Positions 7,805 through 20,766 of a stretch of DNA of 20,766 nucleotides are shown piece by piece. Numbering within the stretch: position 1 is the stretch's first letter; every line of letters begins with the position of its first letter. This DNA comes from a virus (lineage: Duplodnaviria > Heunggongvirae > Uroviricota > Caudoviricetes). The stretch is taken from IMG/VR virus record IMGVR_UViG_2600254997_000022, one strand, 5' to 3'. The position numbers were made by a program, and so were the translations under genes. The notes below the pieces were generated by a model, which was not told the DNA's origin, ran no database searches, and saw only the letters and a list, made by a program, of their open reading frames with translations.

Positions 7805-9114
7805 CCCTTAAGTTTTGCCTGATAGTAACTTTCCGGCAGATAGCCATGTGCGGTCACATAATCCTTAACCAGTGAAGGATCCTGCAACAGCATTTTGGTA
7901 TCAGTTTCTTCGTCCTTTGATTTGGTTACAGGAATACCGAGCCCGGCAATCTGTCGTTTCTGCATTCGAATAATTACGTCCTGCGCTTTATTCAACTCTC
8001 GCAAAAATGCCTCATTGCTGGTTGCTGACTTAATGCCATTTTGAGATTGCATAAGGGCAGCCCTTTCCCCTTCGGTTGGGTTAGAGCCAAAAGTCCCTTT
8101 GAGGCTAGGCAGAATAACCTTTAGGTTGTATTCATCAGCTTTGGCGCGTAGGCTTCGTGTGTCTTCTGCTACATCAGGAAGGAATCCAAACCCCAGCGTC
8201 AGGGGGTTATAGTTCTGCGAGCGGGTAACGGCCGAAGGATGTTTCCCTACAATTCCCGCCAGTTCATGACCCACTTCAAGCGCAGAGTTCAAGGAGTCGA
8301 TGTTACCTGCAACAGTATTAATTTTATCGTTCATCTTCTCCACTTTCGCCTGCTGTACTTTGCTCAGTTCAGCATTGAGCTTGTCTCTCTCGATGTCATT
8401 TTGAGCACGTCCAAGTCGTGCTTTCAGAACCATTTCTCTCGTGCGTAGTTGGTTATCGGATAGGACTTTGAACTGCTCCATATCGAGACGCCGATTACCC
8501 AGTTCCGCATTAACCTGAGCATTATATGCAGATGTATCTGCGTTCTGCTGTGCAATGCTCTGCCCTTGCTGCTTCTCTTGAACACTAAAGTAACTATTTG
8601 GATCAGCATGGAGGTGGATGAGGTCAGTGATTCTGTTGAATTCCTGTGGGTCATTCTGCCAAGACTGATAAACCTCTTCAGCAGGAAGACCAAATCGCTG
8701 TAATACTGGATTTGCCTGCTGAATGGCCTTCTGCATGGTCAGTGGATCTCCAGTTTGTGACGCAAGACGCAGATTCATGGCAGCGTCAGCGGTCTGTCGA
8801 TTTTGCTCAGCATCAATGAATCCCATCTGTTTTTGAGAATCAGCCATAAACTGGGGATACTGGGCCATTAACTTCTGCACGCCAACACGATCATTATTAG
8901 CTACCGCACTACCCAACCGTGCCTGATATTCTTTTAGCTGCTGGGAAATTTGCGCCTGCTGATTAATCTCAGCAACGCCTCTTAGCCCCTGTAGCGCCAT
9001 TAAACCTACGTTTGGCTGCTGCTGATACTGCACAGGCTGAGGAACGGAAGAACGAGGAGCATTATCATTTTGCGGTGCCATGCTAGGCAGCCCGCCAAGT
9101 TGCCATGTCGCCAT
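7795..9114 (-). CDS. Gln/Ala-rich coiled-coil protein, 439 aa; ejection/internal-virion-like
   Basis: Start overlaps the upstream stop (TAATG) and its stop overlaps the next start, so it is translationally coupled. Q/A-rich, low-complexity composition. Assignment is by composition and gene order only. Confidence 0.55.
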   Translation of the reverse strand: MATWQLGGLPSMAPQNDNAPRSSVPQPVQYQQQPNVGLMALQGLRGVAEINQQAQISQQLKEYQARLGSAVANNDRVGVQKLMAQYPQFMADSQKQMGFIDAEQNRQTADAAMNLRLASQTGDPLTMQKAIQQANPVLQRFGLPAEEVYQSWQNDPQEFNRITDLIHLHADPNSYFSVQEKQQGQSIAQQNADTSAYNAQVNAELGNRRLDMEQFKVLSDNQLRTREMVLKARLGRAQNDIERDKLNAELSKVQQAKVEKMNDKINTVAGNIDSLNSALEVGHELAGIVGKHPSAVTRSQNYNPLTLGFGFLPDVAEDTRSLRAKADEYNLKVILPSLKGTFGSNPTEGERAALMQSQNGIKSATSNEAFLRELNKAQDVIIRMQKRQIAGLGIPVTKSKDEETDTKMLLQDPSLVKDYVTAHGYLPESYYQAKLKGWQ

Positions 9115-9791
9115 TAGAATCCAAGCCCCCCAACAAGACCAATAAGCCCACCACCAATAGCCCCGGCGACATTACCTATACCCGGAACAACGGAACCAAG
9201 TTGCGCACCCGCTAAAGCGCCTGATGCCGCCCCACCAATACCACGCGCAAGACTGGATGGCTGCTGCGCCTGACCTGCACGAATAGCGCCAAGCCCCTGC
9301 AAGAGTTGTCCGGTATTATTGGCGTAGTTTTGCCCTGCTGTTGCCTGCCCTGATGCCGCATTCATCCCGACATTTAGCAGGTTTCCATAATTTTGCATTT
9401 GCCCACTGAGCCAATTGTTATAAAGCATGGGCGCAATGGAAGATAACTGGTTACTGGTAGCTGTTGAGCCAAGCCCCCCGGTAGCTTCTGCTGAGACAAG
9501 GTTCTGATAACGGGCCTGATCTGCCTGTGTTTTATATAAACCAGAACCAAAGAAATCATTCGCGGCTTTATTCTGCCCTTCCAGAGTCATCAGTCCTTGT
9601 AGTTGTTGTAAAGCAGGCAATCCGACTTCTGCATACGGCTTGAGATTATTCATCACCGTATTCCACTGCTCGCGCTGCAAATCAATTGCCTGCTGCTGGG
9701 CCTTCGCCTGAGCTTTAGAGGCACCACCATCACCGCCTTTTTCGTATACGGCACGATTGAGATATTTATGAGCTATATGGGTAATTAACAT
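9114..9791 (-). CDS. 225-aa protein with Gly-zipper C-terminus; ejection/internal-virion-like
   Basis: Start overlaps the upstream stop (ATGTTAA). C-terminus GIGGAASGALAGAQLGSVVPGIGNVAGAIGGGLIGLVGGLGF is a glycine-zipper/membrane-like segment. Confidence 0.55.
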   Translation of the reverse strand: MLITHIAHKYLNRAVYEKGGDGGASKAQAKAQQQAIDLQREQWNTVMNNLKPYAEVGLPALQQLQGLMTLEGQNKAANDFFGSGLYKTQADQARYQNLVSAEATGGLGSTATSNQLSSIAPMLYNNWLSGQMQNYGNLLNVGMNAASGQATAGQNYANNTGQLLQGLGAIRAGQAQQPSSLARGIGGAASGALAGAQLGSVVPGIGNVAGAIGGGLIGLVGGLGF

Positions 9792-10246
9792 TCGCTGAAT
9801 TCCTTATATTGTTGCCGAGTTAACTGATAAAGCATTACGCCGACGGGTTTACCACATCTGATATAAGCATCATCAAGGTGACCAACACGGGTAGCGCCAA
9901 GCAAACGGATAATTGCCCGTCCGTATTTGGTGGTGTCAGGAACCATGGTAATGCTGTTAAGGAATGGTGAGTTTTCGAGAAGCCATTTGCAGAATAATCG
10001 ATGCCCTTGCAGTGCATATTCACCACGGAATCCGGGGTCGTACACCGCATGGCATTCAACAATGTTATGCCAGAAGTTACGCACTTCATGAACGCCAGCC
10101 AGCACCAATCCTTCGTAGATACCGAGATATACCGCATCAGGCTTGATGTAGTACGTGTGCCCCGGCTCAACAATATTTTCGGTATTGCCAGGCTCGTTAA
10201 GAAAGGCCTGTAATCGCACAGGGTTATCAATAAATTTTAGTTCCAT
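9785..10246 (-). CDS. hypothetical protein, 153 aa
   Basis: First large ORF of the coupled operon; starts 16 bp downstream of the small upstream ORF. No domain recognised. Confidence 0.55.
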   Translation of the reverse strand: MELKFIDNPVRLQAFLNEPGNTENIVEPGHTYYIKPDAVYLGIYEGLVLAGVHEVRNFWHNIVECHAVYDPGFRGEYALQGHRLFCKWLLENSPFLNSITMVPDTTKYGRAIIRLLGATRVGHLDDAYIRCGKPVGVMLYQLTRQQYKEFSEC

Positions 10247-10262
10247 GCGATGCCATCCATTT

Positions 10263-10424
10263 TCACATACAGCCTGCCAGCGCCTTATCTATTAACCCTC
10301 GTGCAATTTCATGCAGAGTTGGCGCTACTCCAATTCCTGATTTTTTACGCTGCTCTTCCTGAATTTTCTTTATCGCTTCCATTTGCTTCTCACTTATCAA
10401 TACCGGCTTTACTGAAATAGCCAT
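10263..10424 (-). CDS. small protein, 53 aa, possible ribbon-helix-helix DNA-binding fold
   Basis: Below the ORF-track size cutoff; found by manual translation: MAISVKPVLISEKQMEAIKKIQEEQRKKSGIGVAPTLHEIARGLIDKALAGCM. GGGGG RBS 5 nt upstream. A strand-helix-turn-helix pattern is plausible but unverified. Confidence 0.35.
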   Translation of the reverse strand: MAISVKPVLISEKQMEAIKKIQEEQRKKSGIGVAPTLHEIARGLIDKALAGCM

Positions 10425-10437
10425 AACGCCCCCTTAG

Positions 10438-10463
10438 AACTGTATAAAACAACAGTTATTATA
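10438..10463 (-). promoter_or_regulatory. LexA-box-like operator AACTGTATAAAACAACAGTT adjacent to a perfect TATAAT -10
   Basis: CTGT-N8-ACAG at 10438-10457. On the minus strand TATAAT (10463..10458) directly precedes the box, which is followed by the RBS and the ATG at 10424. Confidence 0.5.
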
Positions 10464-10517
10464 GTTTCATAAATCGCAACATTCATCATCGTAATTGCAA
10501 AATATGAAACATATAGC

Positions 10518-10552
10518 ACAAAAAAATGCCACCGCTCAGTAGCTGGTGGCAT
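10518..10552 (-). terminator. strong intrinsic terminator between the replication module and the downstream operon
   Basis: 8-bp stem ATGCCACC/GGTGGCAT with an 11-nt loop, followed on the minus strand by a run of six T. Confidence 0.55.
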
Positions 10553-10872
10553 CGTTCTGTGTGTCAGGTTTTGACAGGTTTTTTATGGACTCTAAAAACT
10601 ATATTTATGGTGTCGCATTACTCTTCACGGCAGGCGCTTTTCAGTTCTGCCCTTGCTTCTGGCTCCATTGGTAATTTGATTCGCGATCAGCTATGCGGAT
10701 GGTTTGCTGAACAGGCATAACAACTTCTCAAGGGCTGTTTTCTGAACTACGAAAATTTCGTAGTGCTCACTTTCAAAAACGTCACGCCCTTGTACACAGG
10801 ATTTTACGAAAGTCTCGTAAAACACTCTCTGATGCCAGCCAGGTGTTGTGCGCATCAATTCAGTCACATTGT

Positions 10873-10974
10873 GTTGGTTCAAAATACCGTGTTGTTGGTT
10901 CAGTGTTGGTTCAATAAAAAGAATAAAATCCTTATAAAACAATACCCTTTATAAATTGAACCAACTGAACCAAC
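10873..10974. repeat. iteron array B: GTTGGTTCA at 10873, 10894, 10905 and tandem TGAACCAAC at 10957, 10966
   Basis: Begins 26 bp after the primase stop. Inverted, ~75% identical copy of module 1045-1165, including the shared spacer AATTT(A/G)TAAAG(G/A)GTATTGTTTT. Confidence 0.75.
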
Positions 10975-10999
10975 ACCTTTTCTACGCACATGAAGAAGC

Positions 11000-13759
11000 T
11001 CATTCTTCAGATGAGTTGTAATCTCCTGGCTGGTAATTGAGTACATAAACGTTTATTTGTCGTCCCTGAATACGTGGTGATTTTCTTTGGTATCCACGAC
11101 CGCTGTTTGGTGGGGTTAGCATCCCGGCTTTTTTCAACACTTCAGCAAACTGTTTTGCGTTGAAACCACATGCGATCTCCTTTTCAAATGTGGCCGGGAA
11201 TGTGTAGAAAATCATTGGGCTTTCGTCATGTTCTCCACGCTGACGGTATCCGGCTAAATCTTTGATGGGCAAATCTGCCGGGCTGTATGGAAATGGTGCA
11301 AAACGGCTAAGCCCATAGGCATTAAGAAATGCCTCCGTTTGTTCAATAATCTGCTGATGTTCTTTGTTACCTGTGCCGAACTCGCGCAACCATGCGTTAT
11401 AGCTGTGCTGTATCGCATCACGGCATGTCTGAGCATCCCAGCCTGTTACAACCTCGCCTAACAGCAATGCGGCCTCCAGAATGGCAAATCGCGCGGCTAC
11501 ACGGTGAACCTGCTCACCATAATCGGATGGGATCAGACTTCTCCATCTGCTTTCGCGGTCACGAACAGTTTTAATTGCCTGTTGCTGGTGGTCTGCCAGC
11601 CATTTAATCCACTCACGCCCGGCTGCGCCGTGGTGATGCTGGTAAGCGTCTTTCAGTGCGTCTGCGTGCTGTTTTCCGTTCTGGTAATCGTGAAAGCGTA
11701 CTGCTTTACTCAACGGAATATTCAGCAGTCGCACCAGTTGCCCGGCTTTGGTTTTTCGCCCGGAAGTAGCGATAAATGTTTCTAAATCCATTTCTCCGGT
11801 GCTGATTGCCACTGTACGCCAGCGTTTTAGATCCCGGTTTCCACCATCTTTAGCGCCTTGCAGTTTCCCTACACCGTTAAATAACGCATAGGCAGACTGT
11901 GAAACACTGACAGGATCAGCGCCCTGACCAACTTCATCAAGCGGCATTAGTCCGTCATTGTGGGCGGCAGCTTCATTTGCCAGCCCCAGCGCGGTTCCGT
12001 ACCACGTCAGCCGCAGTAAATCAGGGTTGCCGTATAAGCTGCTCGCCACGTTTGCCGTGGTGGTCTTACCTGCGCTCGACTGCTCATAGAAATGAATGCC
12101 GAACCCGTCAGCGCCCACCAGCCCAATCAATGGCGCTGCCAGTGCTGCGCCGATCCCGGTCATCATTGAATAGTTACCAAAGGCCAGACGCGCCACGTTA
12201 TCACGCCAGCTTTTCGCGCTCCCTGAGACGGTATATCCGGCTGCGGCTGAGCTTCTCCCGCTGAACAGCACAGGATTTTCAGGTGTTCCGATGATTTCCC
12301 CATCAGGCATGATGTACGCTCCGCATTGCCAGCCAGTGGCATGAGCAACACGCCACAATTCACGAGAGCCACTGCGTTGTAGCCAGTCTGCCAGTATTGC
12401 TCTGAGGCTGCTTTTGGTCGTGACATTTACCCCACCAGCTTTAAGTGTGCGCCATCCTTCACGTTCACCAATATCAGCCAGTGGAATGGCAGCGGTTGTC
12501 GGCGTTTCAGAACCAAACGACAGCCAGCGAAGAATGAGATACTGGTCTTTATCGTCTCTGCCAGTACCGATAACGCTTAACGGAGAACATAACCAGCTTT
12601 CGTTATTGATGATTTCTCCACTCTGGCTGTCAGCTCTCGGAGATACCCAATAAATACCATCCTCGCGGCTTTCTATTCTTGGTTTCAGTGGGTCGGTATC
12701 CATAACCTTAAAATCGCTTCCCTCAATGGTCTGTGGCTCCTGTTTCACGCCATTACCCTGTGGTTGGTACATTGACTTATTGAACGCTTCTGTGGCGCAT
12801 TTAATGCCGTGTTTTTGGTGGTAATCATTCCAGTCTGCTTTGTGATCTGTCGGGGGTAATGCCACCCATCCAGAAACAGATAAAGCTGCTTTTTCTGCTG
12901 CTCTTCTCCCCGTGTTTTGTCTTCCTTCGCTGTGGTCGTTATCCGCAGCAATGATGATTTGTGCTGAAGGAAATTTATCCCGCAGTACCTGGGCGACATA
13001 TAACAGGTTCCCGGCATCAATCGCCGCCACTGTCAGCGCCTCTGGGCGAATTAAATGGGCAGATAATGCCGTTGCCAGCCCTTCTGCGATTAAGATGCTC
13101 TGTGTTGTTTCTGGTGCGTTTATGGCGTGATATGCCCCTCGCTTTGCTGAACCTGTCAGGAGTCTTTTTTCACCATGTGAGGTAATAGTCTGTGCTGCTG
13201 TGACTGCGCCGGATTTATCCACCAGCGCCAGCAACAGAGATCCATCGGGCAACACGGGGAATGTAAAATCACCTACCCCTTTCGCAACCAGATAATCAGA
13301 TTTGCCGTTTACAGCCTTTCTGCGCATGTCATCAAACTGACGGGAAAACGTATCCCGTCTTTGTTGTTCGTCCTTCTCTGCCCTTTTCAGGCGCTCCTGT
13401 TCGCGTCGCTGGCGCTTGGTTTCCAGTTGTTCCCGTTTCTGGCTGGTGGCTTCTGGTGTTTCCGTTGTCCGGTAATCAATACCCAGAACATCAGCGGCAA
13501 GAAGCGCCGCCTCTGTTGTGTCGCAGTTATTTACGCGTTTAATTAAATCCAGCCCATCACCAGCGCCGCACTGATTACAGATGAAGCTACCGCGCCCGTT
13601 GTCATCGAACCGGAATCGATCTTTTCCCCCACATGCAGGGCAGGGAGCATGACGGCGCGGAGAGTCAGGGACATTTATGTTCAGGCAGCCCAGCACATGA
13701 GGCCAGTTGTTTTCAGACGCACTGATAACCTGACGGATAAGATCAATGTTTCGCATCAC
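11000..13759 (-). CDS. primase-helicase (zinc-ribbon + TOPRIM + P-loop NTPase), 919 aa
   Basis: Zinc ribbon CPACGG..FICNQCG near the N-terminus, TOPRIM-like LIAEGLATA...AADNDH, Walker A SSAGKTT. The first codon at 13759 is GTG; the ATG at 13756 is the likelier start. Confidence 0.85.
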   Translation of the reverse strand: MMRNIDLIRQVISASENNWPHVLGCLNINVPDSPRRHAPCPACGGKDRFRFDDNGRGSFICNQCGAGDGLDLIKRVNNCDTTEAALLAADVLGIDYRTTETPEATSQKREQLETKRQRREQERLKRAEKDEQQRRDTFSRQFDDMRRKAVNGKSDYLVAKGVGDFTFPVLPDGSLLLALVDKSGAVTAAQTITSHGEKRLLTGSAKRGAYHAINAPETTQSILIAEGLATALSAHLIRPEALTVAAIDAGNLLYVAQVLRDKFPSAQIIIAADNDHSEGRQNTGRRAAEKAALSVSGWVALPPTDHKADWNDYHQKHGIKCATEAFNKSMYQPQGNGVKQEPQTIEGSDFKVMDTDPLKPRIESREDGIYWVSPRADSQSGEIINNESWLCSPLSVIGTGRDDKDQYLILRWLSFGSETPTTAAIPLADIGEREGWRTLKAGGVNVTTKSSLRAILADWLQRSGSRELWRVAHATGWQCGAYIMPDGEIIGTPENPVLFSGRSSAAAGYTVSGSAKSWRDNVARLAFGNYSMMTGIGAALAAPLIGLVGADGFGIHFYEQSSAGKTTTANVASSLYGNPDLLRLTWYGTALGLANEAAAHNDGLMPLDEVGQGADPVSVSQSAYALFNGVGKLQGAKDGGNRDLKRWRTVAISTGEMDLETFIATSGRKTKAGQLVRLLNIPLSKAVRFHDYQNGKQHADALKDAYQHHHGAAGREWIKWLADHQQQAIKTVRDRESRWRSLIPSDYGEQVHRVAARFAILEAALLLGEVVTGWDAQTCRDAIQHSYNAWLREFGTGNKEHQQIIEQTEAFLNAYGLSRFAPFPYSPADLPIKDLAGYRQRGEHDESPMIFYTFPATFEKEIACGFNAKQFAEVLKKAGMLTPPNSGRGYQRKSPRIQGRQINVYVLNYQPGDYNSSEE

Positions 13760-16124: not shown

Positions 16125-16281
16125 GTGGCAGCCTCCTTGTACTGGGAATTCTTCCCACCACCGGAGCTGCGAAACTCGCTGGTGGTGGACTGAACAGAGT
16201 TCGCAGTACCGGCGTACAAGGAAACCGGCCAGCCTTTCGGCTGCCCTGTCCAGCCCACCATAATTTTACAAGCGACGCGGA

Positions 16282-16788
16282 TTATAACCACATCACCGAA
16301 AAAAGTGTGAGTCTGGCTAACGGCACAGAAAAAGACGCTCGGCGCGTCCATGTGTCGCCTCGTACATTTCCGGGCTTGCGAAACCCGGCACCCGTTTTAT
16401 GAGGTGCCTTATAACCATAAACCGTGTTGCCGCATAACGGCAAGCTCTTTTTTATGGACTCCGAAAACTCACTATTGGAAGAACCAGAAGCACAGTACAT
16501 CGCGCTCATTTCGTTAACGTCACGCGCGTAGACGAATGTTTTTGTGGAGTCACTACACGAGCAGAACAGGTGATCTACGACCAGAAATTCTCTGGCGCAG
16601 CCGCTGACCTTCTCAACGCTAACACCATCGACCGTAATTTCTGACATAGTTAAGGCATCCGCTCCTACCACCAGCAAATGATAAACTTTGCTTGTATCTG
16701 CTATATTAATGTCTGACTTTGCTGTCATATTGCTGGATTTTGGCGACATACCAGCCAGTGAAAATATCTTCTTCTGGGCGGTTAGCAT
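16282..16788 (-). CDS. hypothetical Cys-rich protein, 168 aa (C-terminal part doubtful)
   Basis: GGAGG RBS, and the start overlaps the upstream stop (ATGCTAA). The 3' third runs through hairpin-rich sequence with atypical composition. Confidence 0.4.
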
Positions 16789-17802: not shown

Positions 17803-18234
17803 TTAGGCGGCGTTAAACGCGTCCGGGTAGAGTTTCAGAATGTCGGCAATTTCCTGCTGAGAAAGTCCGTTGTGATCATTTATGTTCGCAAGATGGTTAA
17901 CATGAGTGATCACTTTCAGAACATCACCACGGCAGGAGAAACGGTAGCGAAGGTGTGTTCCGATACCATCAGGATTCTTTTCGTCGATACGCTCCAGAGT
18001 GATTCCAAGCTGGCGTTCTAACTCTGTTGCATAGTTACGACCAGATGACAGACGGCAGTAGCGAAGAATGTCATTTTCTGTCCATCCCTCTATACCAGTA
18101 CGCAGCATATAGACTCTGGCACGATGCTTTTTCGGTGTGCGCTTTGGTGCTTGAAGGGATTTTGTAAGGGGCGTAACATCAGATACGCGAATATCTGAAT
18201 TAGCCGCCTGTAATGGGCGGTTTTTCTTTTCCAT
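17803..18234 (-). CDS. hypothetical protein, 143 aa; translationally coupled to alpA
   Basis: Its ATG overlaps the alpA stop (TGATG). Basic N-terminus; no domain recognised. Confidence 0.6.
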   Translation of the reverse strand: MEKKNRPLQAANSDIRVSDVTPLTKSLQAPKRTPKKHRARVYMLRTGIEGWTENDILRYCRLSSGRNYATELERQLGITLERIDEKNPDGIGTHLRYRFSCRGDVLKVITHVNHLANINDHNGLSQQEIADILKLYPDAFNAA

Positions 18235-18437
18235 CAGGCCACCTTCCCGCGGCGTTCTGCCAGCCAGTTGTGAATCTCAACCGCATCAAACGCAGTTATT
18301 TTTTCTCCCAGCTTTACCGGACGTGGTAGTGAACCGTTTCTTACTTTACGGTCGATGGTGGATACACTAACGCCCAGCAATTCAGCCAGGCGAAAGCGTC
18401 TGATATAGCCTTTTGTAGGGATAGTGTCGATGTTCAT
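18234..18437 (-). CDS. alpA: AlpA-family (CP4-57-type) HTH regulator, 67 aa
   Basis: RFRLAELLGVSVSTIDRKVRNGSLPRPVKLGEKITAFDAVEIHNWL matches the AlpA pattern; sits in the usual position inward of a P4-type integrase. Confidence 0.8.
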   Translation of the reverse strand: MNIDTIPTKGYIRRFRLAELLGVSVSTIDRKVRNGSLPRPVKLGEKITAFDAVEIHNWLAERRGKVA

Positions 18438-18500
18438 GATTCCCGTAACCTCTTAGCGATAGTTGTTGCTTCGTTACGAGAAATCTAGCTGTATAGATAT

Positions 18501-18532
18501 ACAATGAAAAGGTACTGTAATTTTGCAGTACC
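18501..18532 (-). terminator. putative intrinsic terminator after the 316-aa cargo ORF
   Basis: Inverted repeat GGTACTG-N8-CAGTACC followed on the minus strand by TTTTCATTG, 12 bp after the stop at 18544. Confidence 0.4.
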
Positions 18533-19512: not shown

Positions 19513-20766
19513 TCATGCTCTGATTGGCGTTACGTTGTAGTCTTTTCCGCTTTCCAGTGCCACCAGCAGATCTGCCCACTGTGCCAGTGCTGCTTTACGC
19601 TCATCAAAATACTGATGACGGTTATAAATCCCCTCTACGCCCTTAATGCGATGATTGAGGCATCGTTCCGCCACGACAGGATCAACACCCAATGCTGCTA
19701 AATGAGTACGTGCGGTGCGTCGGAAGTCGTGAATCGTGAAATTAGGCACATCCGGCATTTCGGCGCGAACCTTAGCCAGTGCTACGGGTAAAGTGCTTTC
19801 CTGAATATGTGGGATCATTCTGTTTTGCATCTTCCTGGCCGGAAGCACCCATGCGCTATTACATGAAAAGGTGTGTAGCTCTCTCAACCATTCAACGGCT
19901 GGGGAAGGTAGAGGTATATCAATAGGGTCTCCGTTTTTGCTGCGTTCTTCCGGCAAATGCCATACCGCACCATCTAAATCAAACTCTTCCCATCGTGCGG
20001 CGCATAACTCCATCTTACGAACGCATAGTGCCAGCAATAGTTTAAATGTCAGTTCGTTTTGGCGGCTGAATCCTTTTGCGGTGCGCATAGCCTCGAATAG
20101 CCTGATAAGCTCATCGCGAGTTAGCCAACGGTCGCGGGAAACCTCTTTACCACCAGCATCAGATACTTCAAACGCTGAACAAGGGTTTATCTCCAGAGCG
20201 TGGCGTTTTATCCCATAGTCAAAGATACGGCGTGTCCAGCGTAATACATCTGTTGCTATCGTTGGTGCTCCTCGGTCAACGATACCTTTCAACATGTCGT
20301 CAATGTGGCGTGGCTTAACGTCCTCTACCTTCATATGCCCAATGCAGGGGTTAATATCCTTATCAATTCTCCGGCGAAGGATATCGGGATGTTTCCATCT
20401 CGGAAGTATCTGGCGCTCGAAGTATTCGGAGGCCAGATCTGAAACACGCATGGCGTTTTTCTCAGCCTCCATTTTTGCCAGTGCTTCAGCTTTTCGTTCC
20501 TGTTTCTCTGCTGCTACGTCATAGCCAAGAGCAACTCTGGCTGACAGCTCTTTCGCTGTTTCTCTGGCTTTTGATAGTGACAGTTCGGAGTAAGAGCCTA
20601 TAACCATAGCCCGCTGCTTTCCTGCGAGCTTATAGCGGAATCGCCAGAACGGGACTGTGTAGTTTTTGGGGTAGCAAATATAAAGGCCGTTGCCGTCTGC
20701 CTTGCCATCAAATCTGTCTCCCGCCTTTATCCATGCGCGGATCTGCATATCTGTGAGTTTTGGCAT
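19513..20766 (-). CDS. int: tyrosine site-specific integrase, P4 family, 417 aa
   Basis: C-terminal catalytic region with HDFRRTARTH and NRHQY (catalytic Tyr). N-terminus MPKLTDMQIRAW...DGNGLY resembles P4-type integrase N-termini. The start codon is at the window edge. Confidence 0.9.
   Translation of the reverse strand: MPKLTDMQIRAWIKAGDRFDGKADGNGLYICYPKNYTVPFWRFRYKLAGKQRAMVIGSYSELSLSKARETAKELSARVALGYDVAAEKQERKAEALAKMEAEKNAMRVSDLASEYFERQILPRWKHPDILRRRIDKDINPCIGHMKVEDVKPRHIDDMLKGIVDRGAPTIATDVLRWTRRIFDYGIKRHALEINPCSAFEVSDAGGKEVSRDRWLTRDELIRLFEAMRTAKGFSRQNELTFKLLLALCVRKMELCAARWEEFDLDGAVWHLPEERSKNGDPIDIPLPSPAVEWLRELHTFSCNSAWVLPARKMQNRMIPHIQESTLPVALAKVRAEMPDVPNFTIHDFRRTARTHLAALGVDPVVAERCLNHRIKGVEGIYNRHQYFDERKAALAQWADLLVALESGKDYNVTPIRA

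Follow-up and report, generated by a model that had tools for sequence, protein, structure and literature searches.

A predicted LexA operator heading the Late zone of a Gram-negative phage-inducible chromosomal island

The island and its Late zone

The window analysed here, that is, the whole stretch of 20,766 nucleotides in IMG/VR record IMGVR_UViG_2600254997_000022, is a complete Gram-negative phage-inducible chromosomal island (PICI), located between yicC and dinD. Islands of this kind have been divided into four zones, Integration, Bro, Replication and Late, the last of which acts as a sink for late genes captured from helper prophages (Tommasini, Mageeney and Williams 2023). In the window, the zones follow one another on the minus strand: integrase and AlpA; AntA and Ash together with RNAs; the primase; iterons; and finally a terminator, a promoter and ejection genes. 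The Integration zone comprises an inward-facing integrase (19513-20766) and AlpA (18234-18437), both identified by Pfam, and the Bro zone is marked by AntA and Ash proteins (Pfam) and by two RNAs matched in Rfam, C4 antisense RNA (16178-16265) and isrK RNA (16328-16407), encoded on the minus strand in or beside the Ash gene. Together, C4 and isrK match the arrangement of P4 CI/seqA-type immunity RNAs known from the Bro zones of PICIs. A TOPRIM/DUF927 primase (11000-13759; Pfam) represents the Replication zone, and directly past its gene the iteron GTGTTGGTTCAA occurs five times (10871-10976), as three direct copies, one of them with two mismatches, and two inverted, overlapping copies; we consider this array the probable replication origin, its function being judged from the repeats. 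An alternative label, that of a P4-like satellite with integrase, AlpA, Ash, an alpha-like primase and C4 RNA, was dropped, as the four-zone PICI scheme fits exactly. At least part of the region is carried by about 898 of 5,426 complete E. coli genomes, one further strain harbours the same island at thrW with a different integrase, and relatives are present in IMG/VR contigs, where they figure largely as prophage-type predictions and thus give no indication of packaging. At the dinD-proximal end of the island, past the Late zone, the minus strand encodes a member of the PerC family (721-1008) and the plus strand a second member of the AlpA family (1658-1843), an arrangement found likewise in strain 214-4.

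The Late zone opens on the minus strand with the gene for a 53-aa predicted ribbon-helix-helix (RHH) protein (10263-10424). It is followed on the same strand by genes for a P22 gp14-like protein (DUF2824; 9785-10246; Pfam PF11039, E = 4.8e-60), a P22 gp7-like DNA ejection protein (9114-9791; PF25688, E = 1.9e-72) and a P22 gp20-like ejection/translocase protein (Inj_translocase; 7795-9114; PF16928, E = 1.8e-22). These three homologues stand in the order of the P22 block 14-7-20-16, and the fourth place, that of gp16, is taken by a protein with a lytic-transglycosylase (SLT) domain, which we assign by position. Its gene (3763-7804, minus strand) is broken into pieces at 7190-7804, 4460-5818 and 3763-4716: an IS3-family insertion (5973-7187), which has orfA/orfB and an ALIL frameshift pseudoknot, interrupts it, and downstream of the insertion the gene falls into two overlapping ORFs. 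The same gene is intact in strain 214-4 (L002), where it encodes 906 aa. All genes of the operon are tightly packed, with gaps of at most 16 nt or with overlaps. The ejection operon that the initial annotation had placed here is thus borne out by Pfam, through the gp14, gp7 and gp20 homologues and the SLT protein at the gp16 position; what that annotation had missed is the context, as the promoter in front of it starts the Late zone of a Gram-negative PICI. DNA identity of about 90% to phages Kapi1, Louie and 720R6 starts only within the gp14 gene, indicating that the promoter and the small gene belong to the satellite rather than to the captured block.

The 53-aa protein defines a narrow family within the Enterobacterales. 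An AlphaFold2 model computed from an alignment of 13 sequences (pLDDT 78) has an extended N-terminus followed by two helices, which we scored as the beta-alpha-alpha arrangement of RHH proteins. Profile and similarity searches gave no further support for the earlier description of the gene product as RHH-like: none of the 13 family members matched a Pfam profile even at E <= 10, the protein had no sequence match in the PDB and no membership in a curated RHH profile, and Foldseek returned no significant matches to the model. The assignment to the RHH class is accordingly a predicted one, derived from the modelled fold.

The Late-zone promoter and its predicted operator

Upstream of the 53-aa gene, the primase/replication transcript is closed by an intrinsic terminator (10517-10561, minus strand) of -26.2 kcal/mol (z = -7.2), which is followed by U7 and was not equalled in folding by any of 200 shuffled sequences. 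It coincides with the strong terminator that had been placed at 10518-10552 and thought to insulate the operon from the primase. Terminators at the equivalent place, between the primase unit and the Late-zone promoter, are found in many relatives.

The promoter itself, read directly from the minus strand, contains a perfect -10 hexamer, TATAAT (10463-10458). AA comes next, and with this gap of only 2 nt the hexamer is followed by the palindrome CTGTTGTTTTATACAG (10455-10440), composed of CTGT-TGTTTTAT-ACAG. The predicted 20-bp LexA (SOS) box AACTGTTGTTTTATACAGTT (10457-10438, minus strand) therefore begins right at the end of the hexamer; it covers approximately -6 to +14 of the predicted promoter and thus overlaps the transcription start, which is predicted at about 10451-10453. 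Past the palindrome lie TTCT, the Shine-Dalgarno sequence AAGGGGG (10435-10429) and the ATG of the 53-aa ORF at 10424. Up to this ATG, the initial annotation had read the elements in the same way, as a perfect -10 followed by CTGT-N8-ACAG, a ribosome-binding site and the start of the small gene. The box ends 13 nt before the ATG, similar to the distances of 13-21 nt tabulated for several Salmonella SOS genes. At the position of the -35 element we find only a weak candidate, ATGAAT (10486-10481), with 3 of 6 matches at a spacing of 17 nt, and because of this poor -35 a simple consensus scan made no promoter call at 10463-10458.

Two further dyads surround the -35 position on the minus strand. 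Box A, GTTTCATATTTTGCAA (10510-10495), is an operator-like dyad centred near -52, and a second copy, Box B, TTGCGATTTATGAAAC (10479-10464), is centred at about -21, where it fills the -35/-10 spacer and abuts the -10. Together, the two boxes (10464-10510) form an inverted repeat. A search of the island and of EcCICFT073, the model Gram-negative PICI, for further copies, the alpA region included, found none, so that in both islands the boxes occur at the Late-zone promoter only.

Scoring the palindrome with a LexA weight matrix had been proposed by the initial annotation as a check, and we carried this out with a Lewis-type heterology-index matrix derived from 31 LexA boxes known from E. coli. 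For five of them (recA, both lexA boxes, umuDC and dinD), sequence from K-12 and related strains confirmed the box at the expected promoter, and when applied to 18 kb of K-12 sequence around recA, lexA and umuDC, the matrix returned the known boxes, one other site and nothing else. The window brings its own positive control, since dinD starts at its edge: the chromosomal dinD SOS box AACTGTATATAAACACAGTT (dinD strand; 70-89, core 72-87) obtained the best LexA score in the window, with a heterology index of 2.49. As a side observation, it differs in one base from the K-12-type box in L002. The operator at 10457-10438 scored 5.06, next to recA (5.12) and the two lexA boxes (4.69 and 4.72), and falls within the range of 1.3-10.2 spanned by the 31 reference sites on the same matrix. 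It ranks second among the 41,494 20-mers of the window, surpassed only by the dinD box. From the exact null distribution, a score this good has a probability of 3.1e-8 per 20-mer, corresponding to 0.0013 expected sites per window; the simpler pattern CTGT-N8-ACAG occurs twice in the window, compared to 0.19 expected occurrences. Measured against the gammaproteobacterial LexA consensus TACTG(TA)5CAGTA (as quoted in PMC6590174), the operator matches at all eight CTGT/ACAG positions with exact spacing.

By its sequence, the 20-bp box is thus indistinguishable from chromosomal SOS boxes. With those of recA, lexA, uvrB and dinD it has in common the CTGT-N8-ACAG core, the range of the heterology index and the overlap with the -10/+1 region. 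Unlike them, however, it lies on a mobile satellite, in front of phage-derived virion genes rather than repair genes, and its promoter also holds two further conserved dyads.

Relatives of the promoter and the model island EcCICFT073

For a comparison across relatives, we gathered 148 loci encoding relatives of the 53-aa protein from genomes, IMG/VR and metagenomes; with the window and two annotated E. coli islands added, and one locus with too little upstream sequence removed, the analysis set comprised 150 loci. The 53-aa-family gene usually comes after a primase gene. The cargo behind it varies, and nearly always includes a DNA-delivery protein: P22-type ejection proteins, transglycosylase internal virion proteins, tape-measure proteins or baseplate hub proteins, occasionally also a TerS-like gene. 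Across loci L003-L150, this preference for DNA-delivery cargo amounts to a bias beyond generic late-gene capture. The promoter architecture is kept across 16 genera and consists of Box A (TTTCA-N5-TGCAA, in which TTTC and G are invariant columns), Box B 30 bp further downstream and abutting the -10, TATAAT, and NN-CTGTAT. TATAAT or a variant with one deviating base is present in nearly all relatives.

The operator itself is less uniform. A canonical CTG-N10-CAG with a heterology index of 4.8-9.9 is found in 60 of the 150 loci (31 distinct sequences), namely in Escherichia/Citrobacter-type elements, in some Pantoea and Lonsdalea, and in Photorhabdus. Another 64 loci (41 distinct sequences), from Klebsiella, Raoultella, Serratia and some Pantoea, carry the variant CTGTATAAATATCAGG, a CTG-N9-CAG whose CAG lies within the ribosome-binding site; its heterology index of 11.8-17 suggests that it should not bind LexA. 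The remaining 26 loci have a half-site or nothing at this place. LexA control throughout the family is ruled out by these two groups, and the N9 spacing of so many Klebsiella-type relatives implies that any such control is lineage-specific. Even in the N9 relatives, CTGTAT is kept beside the -10, so that some constraint other than LexA binding must also act on this sequence.

The 47 E. coli-type loci, which comprise 19 distinct sequences, show no variation in the 16 columns of the core or in the six columns of the -10, compared to 10 variable columns out of 43 upstream, a pattern that points to purifying selection on the 16-bp core and the -10 in these loci. A second spacer haplotype, CTGTATCGTTATACAG (spacer ATCGTTAT), retains both the CTGT and the ACAG arm. 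The LexA box is present in 45 of the 46 loci with P22-type cargo, an association that probably reflects shared ancestry.

EcCICFT073 has the same four-zone layout, and its Late zone likewise begins with Box A, Box B, TATAAT, a LexA box and a small gene in front of captured late genes. Its promoter reads Box A TTTCATAATTTGCAA, TTGCTCAAAATGCAA, TATAAT, CAT and then AACTGGATGAACATCCAGTT, with the Box A/B region at L152 13349-13393 and a start-to-start distance between the boxes of 30 bp, as in the window. The box AACTGGATGAACATCCAGTT is a perfect CTG-N10-CAG palindrome with a heterology index of 5.7. The two islands differ, however, in almost everything else: EcCICFT073 has another type of primase, its Late zone opens with an unrelated gene for a 68-aa protein, behind which capsid genes take the place of ejection cargo, its Box B lies 6 bp farther from the -10, and its box has another sequence, set in a longer palindrome with a T-run. 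No homology between the 53-aa protein and the small protein of EcCICFT073 was detected by hhalign (probability 0.7%). The boxes of the window and of EcCICFT073 have essentially only the LexA-critical positions in common, and this, in our view, is the strongest argument that LexA, and not a lineage-specific protein, is the ligand.

The EcCICFT073 box is also maintained among its own relatives. In 80 IMG/VR relatives (49 distinct upstream sequences), CTG-N10-CAG is kept in 79, and changes occur only at tolerated positions. A pattern scan of IMG/VR gave a consistent picture: among the matches listed, 27 of 28 EcCICFT073-type members have a LexA-like site after TATAAT, chance matches to Box A...TATAAT have none (heterology index >= 15.6), and no further promoter type appears beside the two known classes and these chance matches. 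The box of the EcCICFT073 type (L152 13395-13440 and L153-L232) lies within a palindrome of about 30 bp (ATCATAACTGGATG..CATCCAGTTATGAT) with some 14 bp per arm, whose flanks change in a compensatory way and which is followed by T5-7; because of these properties, the site may in that lineage also act as a hairpin or terminator.

Proposed LexA gating of the Late zone and competing explanations

Taken together, we interpret the palindrome at 10455-10440 as the operator of a LexA-repressed, SOS-derepressed promoter that opens the Late zone of the PICI, a reading to which we assign a probability of roughly 0.7 on the strength of the sequence comparisons. The SOS response of the host would then probably be sensed directly by E. 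coli PICI satellites. As long as the cell is undamaged, a LexA dimer bound to the box would block RNA polymerase; upon DNA damage, RecA-stimulated self-cleavage of LexA would open the promoter. The same damage signal induces lambdoid and P22-like helper prophages, so that the satellite would make its captured ejection proteins just as the helper is being induced. Box A and Box B may add a second layer of control by another protein, for which the RHH product as an autoregulator, a PICI factor or a helper factor are candidates, and with such a layer SOS may be necessary but insufficient for full expression. In view of the poor -35 and the two conserved dyads, LexA cleavage alone may indeed yield little transcription.

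It is conceivable that the palindrome serves only an element-encoded protein, most likely the 53-aa protein repressing its own synthesis, and that its likeness to LexA sites is a coincidence. RHH proteins such as Arc, CopG, ParD and omega typically autoregulate, and the operon starts with a predicted DNA-binding protein of this class. Arc is a small RHH protein behind a compact promoter with dyad operators, and the arrangement described here resembles that of the small RHH autoregulators Arc and Mnt of P22 immI in having an RHH first gene of about 53 aa, a compact promoter and dyad operators; the 53-aa protein is, however, without sequence similarity to them, and the likeness rests on the predicted fold. 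The retention of CTGTAT beside the -10 in N9 relatives, which do not have the LexA spacing, would also fit a ligand of this kind. However, coincidence is hard to reconcile with a site whose fit to the LexA matrix equals that of recA, at a chance probability of 3e-8, or with EcCICFT073, where the small protein is unrelated and yet a LexA box of different sequence occupies the same spot. Moreover, Box A and Box B appear to be better candidates than the palindrome for an element- or promoter-specific binder. Since lineages whose small proteins are unrelated have these boxes in common, a protein other than the small one may bind them. Binding by an element-encoded protein only is thus an improbable explanation of the palindrome.

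A different objection grants that LexA can bind and denies that this has any regulatory effect, the promoter remaining silent unless activated by AlpA, a helper factor or the protein bound at Box A and Box B. The weak -35, for which the consensus scan made no call, and the conserved dyads at about -21 and -52 would suit an activated promoter, the cycle of Gram-negative PICIs depends on the helper via AlpA and not on SOS, and many lineages have lost the LexA box and kept the promoter. Against this stand the invariance of the box in E. coli lineages and its independent retention in the EcCICFT073 lineage, which indicate that the box is under selection, and selection requires an effect on expression; LexA binding devoid of consequence therefore seems unlikely to us. 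That the palindrome acts as RNA, by forming a 5' hairpin or attenuator or by terminating read-through transcripts, is suggested by the EcCICFT073 lineage, with its arms of about 14 bp, compensatory flank changes and T5-7. In the window, however, the arms measure just 6 bp around a loop of 8 nt, there is no T-run, and the 5' UTR of the 53-aa gene has no significant RNA structure, folding no better than shuffled sequences (-3.5 kcal/mol, z = 0.18). A 5' UTR hairpin is thereby ruled out for the window, and a role of the palindrome as RNA is very hard to credit.

If LexA does act on this promoter, the question arises how such control would relate to the induction of the island as a whole. In the current view, Gram-negative PICIs are switched on by a helper-induced AlpA activator and SOS has no role in island regulation; for EcCICFT073, alpA expression has been reported to be helper-phage-dependent and not SOS-dependent. 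PICI induction overall is accordingly not SOS-driven, and LexA would gate the Late zone only. The initial annotation had considered DNA-damage control of such an operon unusual, but there is a precedent: in the SaPIs of Staphylococcus aureus, operon I, a packaging and interference operon, was shown experimentally to be under LexA control (Ubeda 2007, as cited in a later paper). The likeness extends to several features, in that a phage satellite places a post-replication operon with helper-related genes for morphogenesis or interference behind an operator for the LexA of its host, with the induction of the island itself being helper-dependent. The SaPIs differ in their Gram-positive host, in their other LexA motif and in their cargo, which consists of terS, cpm and pti genes and not of captured P22-type ejection genes, as well as in the nature of the evidence, LexA control being experimental in the SaPIs and predicted here. 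LexA operators on mobile elements and late-gene capture by Gram-negative PICIs are both known from published work. In the literature searched, whose coverage is incomplete, there is no report of a LexA box or of SOS control at the Late-zone promoter of a Gram-negative PICI, and transcription of the Late zone in these islands is not addressed.

Extending the LexA reading beyond the window, we tentatively propose that host LexA might gate the Late zone of E. coli PICIs in general, EcCICFT073 included, independently of the AlpA switch and in convergence with SaPI operon I. In this broader proposal, which we put forward with less than even confidence, the Klebsiella-type N9 alleles would be natural losses, Box A and Box B would bind a second regulator, and SOS-timed ejection, tape-measure and internal virion proteins would equip or sabotage helper virions. 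The same Late-zone layout recurs in two unrelated E. coli PICI lineages, one of them the model system. If LexA gating holds, satellites would, like SaPIs, sense the inducing signal of their helpers directly and independently of the helper itself, and the view of these islands as ignoring SOS would have to be revised. It would also bear on how SOS-triggering antibiotics affect satellite-mediated interference and gene transfer.

Apart from the operator and the dinD box, a second LexA-like site of the island, CATTGTATATCTATACAGCT, is located at 18487-18506 on the minus strand, 50 nt upstream of the alpA start and just past a hairpin with T4. Its heterology index is 6.4, a score expected 0.006 times per window, and it is common to 116 E. 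coli genomes. The idea that it represents another conserved LexA box, one acting at the alpA promoter, was dropped because L002, the closest island, has other sequence there. In EcCICFT073, too, the region between int and alpA contains a LexA-like site (L152:7289).
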